Source: Longivirga aurantiaca (GTDB lineage Bacteria > Actinomycetota > Actinomycetes > S36-B12 > CAIYMF01). Taken from it: 32,000 bases of DNA. The stretch spans positions 2,332,543 through 2,364,542 of the forward strand of contig NZ_JBHSTI010000008.1 of the NCBI RefSeq assembly GCF_042660085.1, in the 5' to 3' direction. Below, piece after piece: positions 1,616-31,530 of this stretch; within the stretch, counting starts at the first letter, position 1, and every line of letters starts with the position of its first letter. Position numbers and translations under genes: made by a program. Under the pieces are notes generated by a model. It searched no databases and had not been told where the DNA came from. It worked only from the letters and a program-made list of their open reading frames with translations.

Positions 1616-2032
1616 TCAGACGACGGTGACCGGTTCCTCGGTGACGACGCCGTCCACGATGCGGTACGACCGCAGCTCGTACGGCCCGTCCTCGCTGCCG
1701 GTCTCCCGCGTCGAGACCAGCACGTAGTGGGCCTCCGGCTCGGACGCGTAGCTGATGTCGGTGCGCGACGGGTAGGCCTCGGTCGCGGTGTGCGAGTGGT
1801 AGACGACCACCGGCACCTCGTCGTTGTCGTCCATGTCGCGGTAGAGCCGCAGCAGGTCGAGCGAGTCGAACTCGTAGAAGGTCGGAGACCGCGCGGCGTT
1901 GACCATCGGGATGAACCGCTCGGGGCGGTCGCTGCCGGCCGGGCCGGCGATCACCCCGCACGCCTCGTCGGGGTGGTCCTGGCGCGCGTGGGCCACCATC
2001 GAGTCGACCAGGTCCTGTCGGATCGTGAGCAC
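1616..2032 (-). CDS. mec: JAMM/MPN+ zinc metalloprotease Mec (releases cysteine from the CysO-cysteine adduct)
   Basis: It carries the JAMM motif HSHTATEAYPSRTD (HxH-x7-S-xx-D) and DHPDEACGV. The orthologue-like N-terminus (V)LTIRQDLVDSMVAHAR favours GTG 2032 as the start. The track ORF extends to ATG 2101, so the start is uncertain. Confidence 0.85.
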   Translation of the reverse strand: MLTIRQDLVDSMVAHARQDHPDEACGVIAGPAGSDRPERFIPMVNAARSPTFYEFDSLDLLRLYRDMDDNDEVPVVVYHSHTATEAYPSRTDISYASEPEAHYVLVSTRETGSEDGPYELRSYRIVDGVVTEEPVTVV

Positions 2033-2225
2033 GCGCCCAGAGTACGAGGCCTGCGTGCGGGGCCCGAGGTCGCGTGACGTGCGTCGCATAAACCGCGCCA
2101 TAGGTTGTTCAACTTGCGCGGTGTGCGTCCCGGGACCACCCTGGGCGAGGCCGCGACCCAGTGCGCGGCTCCGCCGTTCCGGGAGACGACGGCATTCCTC
2201 GGCTCATGCCTGTGGAGGCTTGTCC

Positions 2226-3053
2226 ATGTCGTCCGCCGTAGAGACGCTCTCGAACGGACAGTTCCAGACCGTCTACAACGTCTTCTCCTTCGCCCTCGCG
2301 TCGATGCTCTTCACCGCGCTGTTCCTGCTGGTGTCCCAGGGCCGCGTGCTCCCCCGCTACCGCCAGGCGCTCGTGGTCTCCGCGACCGTCTGCGGCATCG
2401 CGGCCTACCACTACTTCCGCATCATCAACTCGTTCAACGAGGGCTTCGCCCCGACGGCGATCGGCGGCGACTACACGCTGACGCCGTTCGGCTTCAACGA
2501 GGCCTACCGCTACGTCGACTGGCTCCTCACGGTGCCGCTCCTGCTGCTCGAGACCATCGCGGTCCTTGCGCTCCCCCGCGCCACCCGCGCGTCCCTGCTC
2601 ACCAAGCTGATCCCGGCGTCGGTCCTGATGATCGCGCTCGGATACCCGGGCGAGGTCGCCATCGACACCCTGCCCAAGATGCTGTGGGGCGCGGCCTCGA
2701 CGATCCCGTTCCTCTACATCCTCTACGTGCTGTTCGTCGAGCTCACCAAGTCGCTCGGCCGTCAGCCCGCCGAGGTGGCTGCCAGCGTGAAGCGCCTGCG
2801 CATCCTGCTGATCGCCACCTGGGGCGTCTACCCGATCTCCTACCTGTTCCCGGTCTTCGGGCTCGACGGCGCGGACGCGTTCGTCCTGCGCCAGGTCGGC
2901 TACTCGGTGGCCGACGTCCTGGCCAAGTGCCTCTACGGCCTCGTGATCTACAAGATCGCGCGCATGAAGAGCGCAGCCGACGACCCGGTCTTCGCCGAGC
3001 AGGAGTTCGAGGAGGCGCCGTCGTCCGAGGCTCGGGCCACGGCTGCTGCCTGA
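2226..3053 (+). CDS. Microbial (type-1) rhodopsin, DTE-motif proteorhodopsin/xanthorhodopsin-like light-driven proton pump
   Basis: The protein is 275 aa with 7 predicted TM helices. GGAGG lies 7 nt upstream of ATG 2226. Helix C RYVDWLLTVPLLLLE gives D98/T102/E109, AAYHY gives H62, and helix G YSVADVLAK gives D230 and the Schiff-base Lys234 (aag 2925-2927). Helix E WGAASTIPFLYILYVLF aligns with bacteriorhodopsin WWAISTAAMLYILYVLF. The track ORF start (1899) is an upstream artefact. Confidence 0.93.
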   Translation: MSSAVETLSNGQFQTVYNVFSFALASMLFTALFLLVSQGRVLPRYRQALVVSATVCGIAAYHYFRIINSFNEGFAPTAIGGDYTLTPFGFNEAYRYVDWLLTVPLLLLETIAVLALPRATRASLLTKLIPASVLMIALGYPGEVAIDTLPKMLWGAASTIPFLYILYVLFVELTKSLGRQPAEVAASVKRLRILLIATWGVYPISYLFPVFGLDGADAFVLRQVGYSVADVLAKCLYGLVIYKIARMKSAADDPVFAEQEFEEAPSSEARATAAA

Positions 3054-3106
3054 CCGGCACGACGCACCACTCTCCGCACCTGCGTCTCCCGGCACGGGTG
3101 CGGTCA

Positions 3107-3144: not shown

Positions 3145-3191
3145 ACCCCTCCTTCCACGCCGCACCGGCCATCCCGCAGCGAGGAGCAGCC

Positions 3192-4187
3192 ATGGCCACG
3201 GTCGTGACGACCCGCCCGCGGGAACTGGCCGCACCGCCCCTCGTCGCCGTCGTGCTCGCCGCCGGACCGGTGGCGGTCGCCCTCGCCGTGGCGTCCTCGG
3301 GCGCGTTCGCGAGCTCGGACCCCGCGGTCCCCGGCTGGGCGCCGGTCGTCGCCCTCGCGGCCCTCGTGGCCGGGGTGCCGCACGGCGCCGTCGACCACCT
3401 CGCCCTCGTCCGGTCGCCGTCAGGACGGCGGCGCCTCGAGCTGGCCGCCGTCTAACTCGCCCTCGCCGCGACGGCTGCGGCTGCCGTCGTCCTCGCCCCG
3501 GCGCCGGCGTTCATCGTCGTGCTGGCGATGTCGGTGTGGCACTTCGGCACGGGTGACGTCGCTCTCGCGGACGAGCTGGCGGGCTCGCCCCGGCGCGGCC
3601 GCGGGACGCGACTGGTCCACGTGCTCGCCGCCGGGTCGGTGCCGGTGCTGCTGCCGCTGACCTCGCCCGCCGCGACCGCCACCCTGGTGGGGCTGGAGCC
3701 CCGGCTCTCGGCCGTCACGGCGCCGGGCCTGCTGCTCGGCGTACGCGTGGCCGTGCTCGTCCTGGCCGCCACCGCGGTCGCCGTACTGCTGCGGGGGCGC
3801 CGAGTCGCCCCGGCAGGCGAGGTAGCGCTGCTCGTGCTGCTGGCTCTCACCGTGACGCCGCTGCTCGCCTTCGCGGTCTACTTCTCGGCCTGGCACGCCG
3901 CCCGGCACACGCTGCGGCTGGCGCTGGACGACCGGTCGCGGATCGACAGGGTGCGCCTGCGCACCGTCCTCCGCGACGGCCTGCCATCGCTCGTGGGCAC
4001 GCTGGCGGTGGTCGGGGCCGCGGTCGGCTCCGGGGCGACGACGTCCACCCGGGTCCTGTGGTTCGCGCTCGCCGCGGTCTGGGGGCTCACCGTGCCGCAC
4101 ATGGTGGTGGTCGGCGCCTTCGACCGGCGACGACGCAGCGCAGGCGTCAGTCCTGCTCGTCCCAGCCCGGCGGAGGCTCGGACGTGA
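3192..4187 (+). pseudogene. blh: Brp/Blh-family beta-carotene 15,15'-dioxygenase (retinal synthesis) interrupted by one in-frame TAA at 3453-3455
   Basis: Track ORFs 3192-3455 and 3519-4187 are in the same frame and separated only by TAA 3453-3455 (..LELAAV*LALAATAAA..VLAMSVWHFG). Family signatures are present on both sides: PHGAVDH, WHFG and WHAARH. GAGGAG lies 5 nt upstream of ATG 3192. Confidence 0.8.
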
Positions 4188-4740
4188 GGCCCGTGACGGC
4201 CTGGACGAGCGTCTCCTGCAGGAACGTCAGCCAGTCGTAGACGTGCACGTGCACGAACCCGGGGTCGTCCTCGTCGAGGTCGTAGAAGCCCTCGTGGTTG
4301 TCCTCGGTGAGCCCGAGCCGTGCGCCGAGGGCGAGGCGCAGGTCGTTGAGCGCACCCATCCAGGACGCGATCTCGTCGTCCGGCACGACGACCTTGCGGT
4401 CGGCCTCGGCCAGAGCACGCAGCACCGTCGCGGCATGGTTCATCTTGGTCTCGCGCAGCGACCGCTCGGTGAAGCGTCGGAACTCCGAGCTGGCCTCGTC
4501 GTCGTCGGCGTAGGCGTCGGGCAGAAGCCGCGCGAGGGCGGGGTCGTCGGGGCGCTCGGCGTCGGGGTCGATGCCGACCATCCGGGCGAGCGGGTCGGCG
4601 TCGGCGCCCCAGGGGTCGTCCTCGGGCGAGACGAGCTCGAGGACCTGGCTGACGAGCGTGGCCAGGAGCCCGCGCTCGACGTCGTCGACCTTCAGGACCA
4701 GCTTGCCCGTGGCAGTACGCCGGAAGCCGTGCACGGCCAC
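4147..4740 (-). CDS. DUF2017 domain protein (conserved actinobacterial partner of clpS)
   Basis: The 197-aa acidic ORF (..FRRFTERSLRETK..LNDLRLALGARLG..YDWLTFLQETLV) starts at GTG 4740, 1 nt after the clpS stop. This is the same arrangement as the gene next to clpS in mycobacteria. Confidence 0.85.
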   Translation of the reverse strand: MAVHGFRRTATGKLVLKVDDVERGLLATLVSQVLELVSPEDDPWGADADPLARMVGIDPDAERPDDPALARLLPDAYADDDEASSEFRRFTERSLRETKMNHAATVLRALAEADRKVVVPDDEIASWMGALNDLRLALGARLGLTEDNHEGFYDLDEDDPGFVHVHVYDWLTFLQETLVQAVTGLTSEPPPGWDEQD

Positions 4741-9805: not shown

Positions 9806-10393
9806 ATGACCGAGCCCGATCTCACCGACGCCGTCGCGCCGGTCCCCCTCCAGGTGGGGCCGTACCGCCTCGACGTGCCGGCGGCGTCCGACACCGCGGA
9901 CGTGGTCGCGGCGTTCCACGACCCCGACGTCGCCACCTGGAACCCGGCCGGCGGCGGCGAGATCACGGCCGAGGAGCGCGCGCCGCTGTGGATCGCGGAC
10001 CGCGCCACCTGGACGTCGCAGCACGCGTCCTGGGTCGTGCGCGACCACGACGGCACGGTGATCGGCCAGGTCTCGCTGCACCACCTCGACCACGAAAGCG
10101 GCACGGGCGAGGTCGGCTACTGGCTGACGCCGCGCGGACGCGGGCGCGGGATCGGCACGGCCGTCCTCGACGCGGCGACGACGTACGCCCTGGACACGCT
10201 CGGTCTCTTCCGCATCGAGCTCTTCCATGCTGTCGAGAACGAGGCGTCGTGCCGGATGGCGCTGCGCTGCGGCTACGCGCTCGAGGGCACGACGAGGCAG
10301 AGCTACCGGTACGGCGACGGCCTGCGGCACGACGAGCACCTGCACGCGATCCTCGCCACCGACCCGCGCCCCGAGGTGCGGCCGCCGGCCTGA
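9806..10393 (+). CDS. GNAT family N-acetyltransferase (RimJ/RimL-like)
   Basis: Motifs: WVVRDHDGTVIGQVSLHHLD..GEVGYWL.PRGRGRGIGTAVL (acetyl-CoA motif A, R-x-x-G-x-G/A) and ..FHAVENEASCRMALRCGYALEG. Confidence 0.85.
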   Translation: MTEPDLTDAVAPVPLQVGPYRLDVPAASDTADVVAAFHDPDVATWNPAGGGEITAEERAPLWIADRATWTSQHASWVVRDHDGTVIGQVSLHHLDHESGTGEVGYWLTPRGRGRGIGTAVLDAATTYALDTLGLFRIELFHAVENEASCRMALRCGYALEGTTRQSYRYGDGLRHDEHLHAILATDPRPEVRPPA

Positions 10394-10396
10394 CGC

Positions 10397-11650
10397 CTAC
10401 GGCACCGACTTGATGCGGGTGACGAGCACGGCCGAGAGCAGCGTGACGACGGCGGTGAGCACGTAGAGGCCGGTGTAGCCGAGCCCGCTCGTCACGATCG
10501 GCGCCGCGATCACGGGGGCCACGACCTGCGGTGCTGCGTTGGCGATGTTGATGACGCCGAGGTCGCGGCCGCGGTCGACGGCGGCCGGCAGCACCTGCGT
10601 GACGAGCGCCTGGTCGACCGCGAGGTACATGCCGTAGCCGAGGCCCAGGATCAGCGCCGCGACCATCGCGACGTTGAACACCGGGAAGAACGCGAGCAGC
10701 ACGGCGGAGACGGCCATCACCATCGTGGCGAGGATGACGTAGATCTTGCGCCTGCCGTCGCGGTCGCTGATCCGGCCGGCGATCACGGCGGTGACGATCG
10801 TCCCGAGCGCGTACAGCCCGATGAGGATGGTCTGGCTCGCGGCGGCGTCGTCGACCTTCACCTCGTCCTGCAGCCAGAACAGCAGGTAGAGCGTGGCCAT
10901 GGCGTTGCCGAGCATCATGAGGAAGCGGGTGATCCACGCCCAGGCGAAGTCGGGGTACTCGCGGGGGCTCACCCAGAAGCCGCGCAGGAACGGGCCGAGC
11001 TCGAACGGCGGACGCTCGTGCGGCTGCAGCGGGGTGTCCTTGATGCGCAGCACGAACGGCAGCACGAGGATCACGAGGAGACCGGCCGTCAGGAAGATCC
11101 CGGCGTCCAGTCCCGTCACGATGAACGACACGAGCGCGACGCCGAGGACGATGCCCACGGTCTGCGCCAGACCGACCCAGCCCGACACGAGCCCGCGCTG
11201 CCGCACCGGCACCTGGTCGGGGATCGTCGCGGTGAGCCCGGCGTAGGCCGAGTTGATCGTCGCCTGGCACACGCCCCACACGACGGCCAGCCCGATCACG
11301 GTCGACTGGAAGGCGAGCGCACAGATGGCGAGCGCGCCCAGCACCGAGCCCCAGAGCACCCAGGTCCTGCGCCGCCCGAAGCGCGACAGCGTGCGGTCCG
11401 AGAGCGCGCCCGCCGCCGGGTTGGCGACGATCGACATGAACGCGCCGACGCCGGCGATCCAGGCGAACGCGTTCTCCTTGCCACCCGATCCCGCCACCTC
11501 CTCCGCGAGACGGGGCAGCAGGTTCTGGATCGGCGTGTAGAACGCCAGCATGATGCCGAGGTTCGCGAGCACGACGGGCAGCACGTAGCGCGTGCCGATC
11601 TGCCGCGTCGGCTCCGCGAGCGCCGACGGCGCCTTGTCCTCCACGCTCAC
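10397..11650 (-). CDS. MFS transporter, probably a glycoside/sugar transporter co-transcribed with the beta-glucosidase
   Basis: It is a 417-aa polytopic ORF. GTG 11650 overlaps the bgl stop in a GTGA arrangement (11647-11650), which indicates translational coupling. LSDRTLSRFGRRR and ISDRDGRRK are MFS loop motifs. Confidence 0.85.
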   Translation of the reverse strand: MSVEDKAPSALAEPTRQIGTRYVLPVVLANLGIMLAFYTPIQNLLPRLAEEVAGSGGKENAFAWIAGVGAFMSIVANPAAGALSDRTLSRFGRRRTWVLWGSVLGALAICALAFQSTVIGLAVVWGVCQATINSAYAGLTATIPDQVPVRQRGLVSGWVGLAQTVGIVLGVALVSFIVTGLDAGIFLTAGLLVILVLPFVLRIKDTPLQPHERPPFELGPFLRGFWVSPREYPDFAWAWITRFLMMLGNAMATLYLLFWLQDEVKVDDAAASQTILIGLYALGTIVTAVIAGRISDRDGRRKIYVILATMVMAVSAVLLAFFPVFNVAMVAALILGLGYGMYLAVDQALVTQVLPAAVDRGRDLGVINIANAAPQVVAPVIAAPIVTSGLGYTGLYVLTAVVTLLSAVLVTRIKSVP

Positions 11651-28302: not shown

Positions 28303-28551
28303 GACTTCGTTGTCCTATCGCAGAGGGGCGGATCGTCGTTCCATCTCAGGGTGCCCTAAGCGTGTACCGGTGCGAAGAGGAACCCCGTGTGAAGTACGCC
28401 GTACTCGCGGGTTGTGACCGGCGGCACAGGGTGCCGTGACCGTTCCGTGAACCGCGATTCCGTTGTGCCCCACGTAAGTAAGCGTTGTCATGAACGAACG
28501 CGAGCGCAGCCGAACGGGTGCGGTGTCACCGACCTCACACGTCGCGCAGGG

Positions 28552-30219
28552 CTACGACACGAGCGGGAACGTCGTCGTCACGAGGTACGCGAGCGGCACA
28601 CCCTGCACCACCGCGACGGACCACGGCAGACGCGCCCGACGCGTCACGGTCTGGCCGTACACGAGCAGCAGCCCGAGCACGATCGCCATGAGCGGCACGA
28701 GCAGCGTCAGGAACCCTGGCGCGCCGAGCACCACCACCGACGCGAGCAGGACGACGACGGCGACCACGCGCGTCACCAGGGCGAGCCACCACCGCGCACC
28801 CACGAGCCGGTCGTCGGCCCAGAACCACGCGATGAACGCGAGCTCGACCACGAGCAGCCACGACCGCCTGTCGCCCGCGAGGTCGAACGCCGACCACGTC
28901 ATGCGGCCGACGAGCCCGAGCGCCACCACGCCGTACGCCGTCAGCGCCATCACCGCGAGCACCTCGCGCAGCACGTACCCGGACGGCGCGACGACGTCGG
29001 CGTCGACCGCGCGCGCGGGAGGCAGCCAGGACGCACGACGGCGCACGAGCGTGGTCAGGAGCGCCACCACCGCGCCGGCGCAGACGAACCACACGATGAC
29101 GTAGCCGCCGACGGCGAGCGGCACGCGTGCGGCCACCCCGGCGAGCGCCGCCGCGGCGAGCGAGCCGACGGCCGAGGCCACCACCGCGACGCCGAGGGCG
29201 ACGAGCGCGCGCGGGCGGGGCGCCTCCGCCGGCCCGCCCTCTCCTGGGGTCCGCGCGGGGAGCAGCAGCCGCGCCAACGGCACGAACCCCACGGCCGCAC
29301 CGACCATGAGCAGCAGCAGCCACAGGATGCGCGAGCCTCCGGCGTCGTGACCGGACGACGGCGCGCCCACGGTGGTGTCGAGCCAGTCGAGCGTCTGCTG
29401 GCGCGTGTCCGCCGAGAACAGGATCGTGATGTGGTCCGCACGCGGCACGACGTCGGCCGCGCGCGCCGTGCCGTCGACCGGCGAGCCGTACCCCGGGCCG
29501 ACGACCCCGTCCGGGTACGCCGCCCGCAGCCCCTCGAGCGCAGCATCGACGAACCGCTGCTGCTCGTTGCCGCCGTACAGCAGCAGGAGGTTGCGCGGCA
29601 CCAGCGCGGAACCTGCAGGCAGGTCGTCGGCCGAGGGCAGCGACAGGGCCACCGTGGCGCCGAGCGGCACCTGGCCCTCGCCCTGCGACGCCGCGACGGC
29701 GTACCGCGTGACGGCCCCCGCACCCATGGAGTGGCCGACGAGCGCGATCGGTCGCGACGGCTCGGCGAACGGCTGCTGCGACGCCCACCGTGCGACGGCG
29801 GCAAGATCCGCGTCGATCGCGTCGGTCGCGACCACGCCGTCGCTCACGGGCAGCGGCACCGGGTTGCGTCCGTGCCCGGTGAGATCGGGCAGGACGACGG
29901 CGTACCCGGCCCGGGCGAGGGAGACACCGAGGTCGTCCATGAGCTGTGCCGAGCCGGCGAAGCCGTGCACCACGACGACCACCGGATGCGGCGCGTCGCC
30001 GTCCTCTACGAGCGTCGTCACCGGCACAGCGGTGTCCGGCACCCCGGCGTCGGCGAAGCCGGGGGCGACCGAGCGCTGCACGAGCGCGGTACCGCGCTCG
30101 AGCCCGGCGCTCTGGCCCGCGAGCACGAGAGTGGCGGGCAGCGTCAGCAGGAGGGCGACGAGCCCGAGCACCCACGAGGAGAGCCGCCGCGTTCCGGTCG
30201 CCGACCGAGGGGTGCTCAT
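28552..30219 (-). CDS. Alpha/beta hydrolase domain fused to a C-terminal polytopic membrane domain
   Basis: An N-terminal TM/signal segment (RRLSSWVLGLVALLLTLPATLVLAG) is followed by the hydrolase core VVVVHGFAGS..LVGHSMGAG (nucleophile elbow GxSxG) and then ~270 aa with about 7 hydrophobic helices. The start is ATG 30219; the track ORF start (31146) is an artefact. Confidence 0.8.
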   Translation of the reverse strand: MSTPRSATGTRRLSSWVLGLVALLLTLPATLVLAGQSAGLERGTALVQRSVAPGFADAGVPDTAVPVTTLVEDGDAPHPVVVVVHGFAGSAQLMDDLGVSLARAGYAVVLPDLTGHGRNPVPLPVSDGVVATDAIDADLAAVARWASQQPFAEPSRPIALVGHSMGAGAVTRYAVAASQGEGQVPLGATVALSLPSADDLPAGSALVPRNLLLLYGGNEQQRFVDAALEGLRAAYPDGVVGPGYGSPVDGTARAADVVPRADHITILFSADTRQQTLDWLDTTVGAPSSGHDAGGSRILWLLLLMVGAAVGFVPLARLLLPARTPGEGGPAEAPRPRALVALGVAVVASAVGSLAAAALAGVAARVPLAVGGYVIVWFVCAGAVVALLTTLVRRRASWLPPARAVDADVVAPSGYVLREVLAVMALTAYGVVALGLVGRMTWSAFDLAGDRRSWLLVVELAFIAWFWADDRLVGARWWLALVTRVVAVVVLLASVVVLGAPGFLTLLVPLMAIVLGLLLVYGQTVTRRARLPWSVAVVQGVPLAYLVTTTFPLVS

Positions 30220-30282
30220 GGCGTCGGACGCTACCGCCGACGACGCGATCGCGCGCCCGCGCGGGCACCGCACCGCGTCACG

Positions 30283-30867
30283 GTGAAGCCGCGTGAGGTG
30301 GACGCGTCCGGCCGGGCGACCTGCGACGCGCGCGACCGCGTCAAACCCGCGAGATGCGCGAACGGCGCGGCCAGCGTTCCCGCATGCTTCGGCGCGCTGC
30401 GCTGCGCGATCGACAACCTCAACGGCGACAACGTCGAGCGGATCGGCTTCCCGCAGGGCAGCCGGCACGTCTTCTGCTACTACAACGCAGTGACGCCGCC
30501 GCCGGACGCCGGCACGATCGTGGTGCGCAAGCAGCTGGCGGCCGGGTCCGCGGGGACGACGGCCCTGCCCGACACGGTGGCGCTGCGCGACCCGACCACC
30601 TGCACGGTGGCCGAGACCGCGAGCGGCGTACGCAGCGAGGCCCCCGCGGTGACCACCACGATGTCGGTGAACGATGCGGACGGCGTCCGCACGACCAGCG
30701 CGTCGGTCGCGGTCGGCAGCGGTGAGCTCTCGAGCGTCGACGTCCTCAACGCGTACGACGCCCTCGCGCCCAGCGGTGCCTCGTCGGCGACGCCGGCGTA
30801 CGCGCTGGCCGGCCTGGTCCTGCTGCTGCTCGGCGCCGCGGCGTACGCCGTGGGTTCGAGGGCCTGA
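30283..30867 (+). CDS. Cys-rich hypothetical protein with a C-terminal cell-surface sorting-signal-like tail; no signal peptide, so possibly a gene remnant
   Basis: Strong GC3 bias runs from ~30340 to TGA 30865-30867. The tail is ..VDVLNAYDALAPSGASSATPAYALAGLVLLLLGAAAYAVGSRA*, that is an LAxxG-like motif, a hydrophobic helix and a basic end. The start is unresolved (GTG 30283 or 30298). This is only the last ~190 aa of the 817-aa track ORF. Confidence 0.45.
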   Translation: MKPREVDASGRATCDARDRVKPARCANGAASVPACFGALRCAIDNLNGDNVERIGFPQGSRHVFCYYNAVTPPPDAGTIVVRKQLAAGSAGTTALPDTVALRDPTTCTVAETASGVRSEAPAVTTTMSVNDADGVRTTSASVAVGSGELSSVDVLNAYDALAPSGASSATPAYALAGLVLLLLGAAAYAVGSRA

Positions 30868-30887
30868 GCGCGTCGCACGCCTGAGCC

Positions 30888-30950
30888 CGTTCCCGGGCCC
30901 GGCCCGGGAACGACCGAGCCCCCCTCGCCCGAAGGCGAGGGGGGCTCGGT
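30888..30950. terminator. Two adjacent hairpins between the convergent genes (bidirectional terminator region; serves cspA)
   Basis: Hairpin 1: CGTTCCCGGGC/GCCCGGGAACG, an 11-bp stem at 30888-30912. Hairpin 2: ACCGAGCCCCCCTCGCC, loop cgaa, GGCGAGGGGGGCTCGGT, a 17-bp perfect stem at 30913-30950. Confidence 0.6.
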
Positions 30951-30962
30951 GCGAGCGTGGTC

Positions 30963-31166
30963 TCAGACCGCGCGGACGTTCTCGGCCTGCGGGCCCTTCT
31001 GGCCCGTACCGATCTCGAACTCCACGCGCTGGTTCTCCTCGAGGGAGCGGTAGCCGCTGCCCACGATCGCCGAGAAGTGAACGAACACGTCGGTGTCCGA
31101 GCCGTCCGGCGAGATGAAGCCGAAGCCCTTCTCCGCGTTGAACCACTTGACAGTGCCCTGCGCCAT
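30963..31166 (-). CDS. cspA: Cold-shock protein (CspA family)
   Basis: [34 protein letters not shown] carries RNP1 (KGFGFI) and RNP2 (VFVHF). GAGGAG lies upstream of ATG 31166. A long upstream untranslated region is typical of csp genes. Confidence 0.95.
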
Positions 31167-31530
31167 TACATGTCTCCTCATGGGGACGGTTCAGGCCGCA
31201 CCTTGTGCGCGGACCCGGGTTGCTTCCGCCGTTGTGTCAGACCTGCCCAAGGGGACGTGTCTTGCGAGGCACCGATTCCGGCGAGCCGGAGGGTTCCCAG
31301 GACGAACGAAGTGCTGCAACCGCCGGAAGCATACCCAGATCCCCGCGCACGACACCATGCCTGCGCCGCTCGGGGGATGTGTCGTGACCTCACGGTGACC
31401 GGGCGCCCTGAGCACGCTGGGCCCGGATTCGTGCTCAGCACGGCGCCCCGTGGGCCCCACGGGCCGCTCGGGCCCTGCGTTCCGACTAACGGACGCGGCG
31501 GGCACCGGGCCTGGCAGGTAGCGTCGCGGC

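Follow-up and report, generated by a model that had tools for sequence, protein, structure and literature searches.

Does the type strain of Longivirga aurantiaca, which carries an intact rhodopsin gene, still encode a working Brp/Blh dioxygenase and with it the known route to retinal? We analyzed a 32-kb stretch of its genome (32,000 nucleotides, hereafter the window) in which the gene that follows the rhodopsin gene, blh, is interrupted by a single in-frame TAA. Three explanations had been put forward in the initial annotation of this DNA: a recent nonsense mutation, a base-call or assembly error, and read-through of the stop or a split two-piece enzyme. The first two both stand, and the third was rejected. 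The features of the rhodopsin-blh region are as follows.

2226-3053, plus strand: rhodopsin, intact, 275 aa, xanthorhodopsin/Gloeobacter-rhodopsin type (PF01036; exact match to MFC6239211.1)
3074-3103 and 3107-3123/3128-3144, plus strand: two stem-loops in the rhodopsin-blh spacer, the second a perfect 17-bp stem with loop GACA
3181-3186, plus strand: ribosome-binding site GAGGAG, read from the sequence, with a 5-nt spacer to the blh ATG at 3192
3192-4187, plus strand: blh, full frame, Brp/Blh beta-carotene 15,15'-dioxygenase, ATG 3192 to TGA 4185-4187
3192-3455, plus strand: N-terminal part of blh, 87 codons and the premature TAA, with two hydrophobic segments and PHGAVDH (His64)
3453-3455, plus strand: the lesion, TAA in place of the conspecific TAC (Tyr88), a C-to-A transversion at 3455
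3456-4187, plus strand: remainder of blh after the stop, 243 codons and TGA, with His117 (WHFG), His235/His239 (WHAARH) and His303 (VPHM)
4147-4740, minus strand: DUF2017 (PF09438; MFC6239213.1), convergent with blh and followed by ClpS

The blh frame is interrupted by a single stop codon

Translation bore out the initial reading of this locus as a blh gene with GAGGAG 5 nt upstream of its ATG and one TAA in its frame: the sole in-frame stop before the terminal TGA is that at 3453-3455 (..ELAAV-stop-LALAAT..). When the stop was bridged, the product matched PF15461 (BCD) with an E value of 8e-39 and 134.3 bits, where the cut-off is 28, with residues 56-311 aligned to profile positions 2-267 of 267 and thus spanning the stop. 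The same bridged product scored 136.4 bits with TIGR03753, for which the NCBI curated cut-off is 95.25; taken by part, the 87-aa N-terminal piece scored 20.3 bits and the post-stop piece alone 109.3 bits. Third-position G+C in the blh frame was 0.88-0.98 from 3240 to 3960, on both sides of the stop, which confirmed the earlier observation that the G/C bias continues unbroken over it.

We aligned 120 Blh homologues of 244-397 aa (median 330), the lone short one of which, P0008, was cut by a contig end. H64, H117, H235, H239 and H303 of the L. aurantiaca protein are all present and were invariant in 119-120 of the 120 homologues. The first four had already been picked out as the intact defining histidines of the family, and the alignment agreed; H303 is a fifth that is likewise invariant. 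A role for the Blh histidines as non-heme iron ligands has been proposed in the literature. The characterised member of the family, Blh of the uncultured marine bacterium 66A03 (Q4PNI0), is a multi-helix membrane protein whose gene also adjoins a rhodopsin gene, and its His-21, 78, 188, 192 and His-256 correspond to H64, H117, H235, H239 and H303 here. His-256 of the marine enzyme is a newly proposed fifth iron ligand (preprint 10.64898/2026.08.06.743266), for which H303 is the equivalent. Compared with Q4PNI0, the actinobacterial protein has a longer N-terminus with an additional hydrophobic segment and, unlike Q4PNI0, the L. aurantiaca frame is cut at codon 88.

A homologue search returned no match above 68% identity; the identity to the window protein was 68% for P0001 and 65% for P0003, both encoded at syntenic loci in related species. 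When the protein with its stop repaired was compared with one genome per species, the best among the matches listed was 49% identical, and no solved structure of a Blh relative came up when the PDB was searched by profile. The uninterrupted frame of about 300-400 codons that is looked for in a blh gene was not found here, the frame meeting TAA at codon 88. By descent the locus belongs to the Brp/Blh family; as sequenced, it is a pseudogene.

The TAA is present in the public assembly, because the exact 87-aa stump is deposited there as MFC6239212.1 (WP_386768085.1, Longivirga aurantiaca). This stump is named 'beta-carotene 15,15'-dioxygenase' at UniRef and 'hypothetical protein' at NCBI, a small annotation fault; its weak TIGR03753 score probably lies behind the uninformative NCBI name. 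By exact look-up, the 87-aa product turned up in NCBI and UniRef only, and no other contig on record carries it. We also looked in the protein collections for the products of seven downstream starts, including the 222-aa product from 3519 and the 219-aa product from 3528, and none was present. For the part of blh after the stop, 3456-4187, the public record thus appears to carry only the 87-aa stump as protein.

The TAA replaces a conserved tyrosine codon

Conspecific contigs were found in public sequencing runs by exact look-up of two proteins, DUF2017 and a cluster-mate of the 87-aa stump. They are short, and the three runs they come from belong to two accession series (SRR36426638 and SRR36426642; SRR22388094).

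L021: run SRR36426642, 99.88% DNA identity to the window, codon 3453-3455 TAC
L023: run SRR36426638, 99.83% DNA identity to the window, codon 3453-3455 TAC
L025: run SRR22388094, 99.33% DNA identity to the window, codon 3453-3455 TAC

Each of the three encodes an uninterrupted 331-aa Blh, and the genes next to blh are those of the window. Each of the 119 homologues that extend over the column of the stop has tyrosine there, and the genes of the window use TAC 192 times and TAT twice, so the ancestral codon was TAC. The initial annotation had predicted an ancestral Tyr encoded by TAC, one transversion from TAA, and the homologues and the three conspecific contigs gave exactly that. Because all three, at 99.3-99.9% identity, have TAC, the TAA is a derived C-to-A change, and it is known from one assembly only.

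Within blh, the window differs from L021 and L023 at 3455 and at a synonymous T/C site, 3554, only, so that the proteins are the same apart from residue 88. At 3554 the window has the base found in L017, a contig from a related species. Because this base is common to the window and L017, the window is a separate and genuine lineage. The comparison with L025 gave nine differing sites in blh: the nonsense site, 2 non-synonymous and 6 synonymous. The ratio of 6 synonymous to 2 non-synonymous changes indicates that blh is functional and under purifying selection in the species.

Two further searches added no allele at codon 88. JGI metagenome contigs scanned for the stop and its flanking codons, with codon degeneracy allowed, gave no match, which counts neither for nor against the TAA, and exact look-up of the ThiS protein found ten further contigs, none of which extends to codon 88.

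Recent nonsense mutation or sequencing error

We infer that the base is real and that the sequenced culture probably acquired the TAA by nonsense mutation very recently. The main alternative is an error of base calling, consensus or assembly, or the choice of a minority variant of the culture as consensus, in which case the organism has TAC and a working Blh. We consider this rather unlikely, although several observations are in keeping with it. The TAA allele comes from a single assembly, a point that counts for an error as much as against a real mutation, and every conspecific contig has TAC. But for one base, the encoded protein is that of the intact L021/L023 allele. Purifying selection on blh in the species also points toward an error, since a null allele would be unlikely to persist in nature. 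The lack of any further decay in blh must likewise be set against a real mutation, as it fits an error equally well as a mutation that is very recent.

The quality of the surrounding sequence argues the other way. All 13 of the other genes between 1 and 14 kb of the window could each be aligned with the orthologous gene as one continuous segment, free of stops and frameshifts, and the remaining window genes gave end-to-end or near end-to-end Pfam matches. We take this to mean that the assembly is not error-prone; across 32 kb there was no other sign of poor quality, neither a frameshift nor another internal stop. The window differs from the nearest contigs by strain differences at about 1 per 800 bp, and a polished consensus would be expected to carry substitution errors at a frequency lower than this by orders of magnitude, by general rates rather than rates taken from this assembly. 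Because the window is a distinct real lineage, a single-nucleotide polymorphism is far likelier a priori than a consensus error. We also counted in favor of a real mutation that loss of blh with retention of the opsin is recurrent in Actinobacteria (PMC5301498). Of the two surviving options, the indirect evidence favors a recent nonsense mutation over an error. Such a mutation may have arisen during isolation, dark laboratory culture or passage.

Read-through and a split enzyme

It is scarcely credible that blh works despite the stop, whether by read-through of UAA, for example by a near-cognate tRNA-Tyr, or as two separate pieces that form a two-chain enzyme. The catalytic histidines are intact on either side of the stop, which would suit both versions, and misreading by tRNA-Tyr would restore the native residue. 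A C following the stop is the weakest bacterial termination context, and the base after this TAA is a C, which we counted for read-through. However, the stop is absent even from the conspecifics, which have TAC, and every homologue covering the column has tyrosine; for this lack of conservation we rejected programmed read-through. The stop codons of 23 window genes counted were TGA in 19, TAG in 4 and TAA in none, so that TAA is otherwise unused as a stop and there is no hint that the organism treats it specially.

A naturally split gene was rejected on three grounds. None of the 120 homologues is split at this column, the result of the test that had been suggested along with this option. The first in-frame starts downstream, GTG 3519 (21 codons past the stop) and ATG 3528 (24 codons past it), have no Shine-Dalgarno sequence, and initiation at either would remove the invariant residues A92, P103 and F107. 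The initial annotation was correct that the first downstream start lacks a Shine-Dalgarno sequence, but the start at 3519 is a GTG and the ATG lies at 3528. P0008, which at 244 aa begins 6 residues after the stop column, was considered as a second split gene and rejected, as it starts only at base 11 of its contig (1,892 bp) and is cut by the contig end.

The rhodopsin gene and the rhodopsin-blh spacer

Inspected by eye, the rhodopsin has the motif RYVDWLLTVPLLLLE (the D-T-E proton-pump motif) and a Schiff-base lysine in SVADVLAK. Its best solved relatives are 9hfk (E 4.6e-90), followed by psXR, Gloeobacter rhodopsin and xanthorhodopsin. From the end of the rhodopsin gene to the start of blh is 138 nt on the same strand, and the linkage is kept in the related-species loci L017-L020 and in L024.

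For the spacer, the folding energy was -78.6 kcal/mol (z = -5.1 versus shuffles). The 17-bp stem is kept in L017 and L024, in the latter with two double (compensatory) changes, as read by eye from the alignment. A terminator scan of the spacer made no call, and the stem-loop has no T-tract. The stem-loops are probably a terminator, an attenuator or an RNA-stabilising hairpin by which expression of the opsin would be uncoupled from that of blh, and they may set the opsin-to-blh expression ratio. The short-read (Logan) assemblies L016, L021 and L023 all break at these stem-loops, their ends being poly-G or poly-C runs.

Neighboring genes and related loci

The gene order around blh is cysteine synthase, ThiS, JAB, rhodopsin, blh, convergent DUF2017 and ClpS, aminotransferase and GH18. 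Exact look-ups identified the cysteine synthase as MFC6239208.1 and ThiS as MFC6239209.1 (L. aurantiaca, Sporichthyaceae, taxid 1837743). The 3' ends of blh and DUF2017 overlap by 41 nt (4147-4187), as they do in every related locus (L017-L020, L021 and L024). Because the next gene is convergent, the blh stop has no polar effect downstream. No carotenoid-synthesis gene and no second blh was found within the 32-kb window.

The same gene order was found in L017-L020, from related species with about 80.6% DNA identity, and in L024, on a 2.76-Mb contig; in all of these blh is intact and encodes 331 aa. When the window was compared with L024 (blh at 10001-10996), Blh was the most divergent protein of the conserved block at 63% amino acid identity, versus 91% for the rhodopsin and 91-98% for cysteine synthase, ThiS, ClpS, the aminotransferase and an MFS transporter.

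Several observations concern other genes of the window. At the place of the window's JAB/Mec-type gene (1616-2101, minus strand; CysO-CysM cysteine pathway), only a 35-aa open reading frame was called in L024 (8410-8517), and the JAB gene may have been lost or broken there. The window carries an intact MFS transporter (10397-11650, minus strand, 417 aa); an 89-aa remnant of it occurs in L018 (14017-14286) and in L019, and the L018 and L019 alignments lack about 730 bp of window sequence at this gene. At 28393-31236 the window has overlapping open reading frames on opposite strands, of 825 aa (plus) and 895 aa (minus), with ambiguous codon-position G+C in both; only the minus-strand frame has a domain match, to alpha/beta hydrolase at residues 410-602. 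An antisense open reading frame at 3420-4100 (minus strand), within the blh region, was rejected as a gene, its G+C by codon position of 0.88, 0.60 and 0.80 being unlike that of a true gene of this genome.

Discussion

We propose that a C-to-A change at 3455 turned the conserved Tyr88 codon, TAC, into TAA in the sequenced culture. Translation would then end after 87 residues, which include two hydrophobic segments and a single histidine out of the four or five that bind iron. As predicted from its sequence, this 87-aa stump cannot form the iron site. The 243 codons after the stop, which have no ribosome-binding site, would go untranslated, and for that reason no active Blh would be made. That conspecific wild sequences lack the change, and that the gene shows no other decay, would mark it as very recent. 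Physiologically, the strain would be expected to make apo-opsin and to accumulate uncleaved carotenoid, unless an external supply or some other route provides it with retinal.

Actinobacteria that have a rhodopsin and lack blh are already well known. They include the acI strains A7 and C1, a Luna1-clade strain and Aurantimicrobium minutum KNC (PMC5301498, PMC7734400), and an opsin without blh is reported to be widespread in acI (PMC5301498). According to work cited in PMC5301498, the absence of blh impaired proton pumping in the Luna1-clade strain. In A. minutum, the rhodopsin pumps with endogenous retinal although no known retinal gene is present (PMC7734400). In the acI, Luna1 and A. minutum genomes blh is wholly absent, whereas in L. 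aurantiaca it is present, selected in the species, and disabled by one base in one strain.

The example of A. minutum bears on one further outcome, in which the TAA is real and holo-rhodopsin is still formed, either by low-level misreading of UAA-C by tRNA-Tyr or by a blh-independent retinal pathway of the kind that A. minutum has. We regard this as quite improbable. If it were true, the type strain and the wild conspecifics with TAC would be a natural near-isogenic pair for finding the pathway.

What the window shows is a pseudogene of the ordinary single-base kind, or else an error, within a family that is well known. Public annotation already reflects it in part, and it adds one more example to the known pattern of actinobacterial opsins without blh; it carries no mechanistic novelty. 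If the nonsense mutation is real, as we favor, the type strain has an intact proton-pump opsin and cannot make retinal by the known route, and predictions of rhodopsin phototrophy made from its genome would overstate its ability. The physiology of the type strain might then misrepresent the species, whose wild members retain an intact, selected blh.
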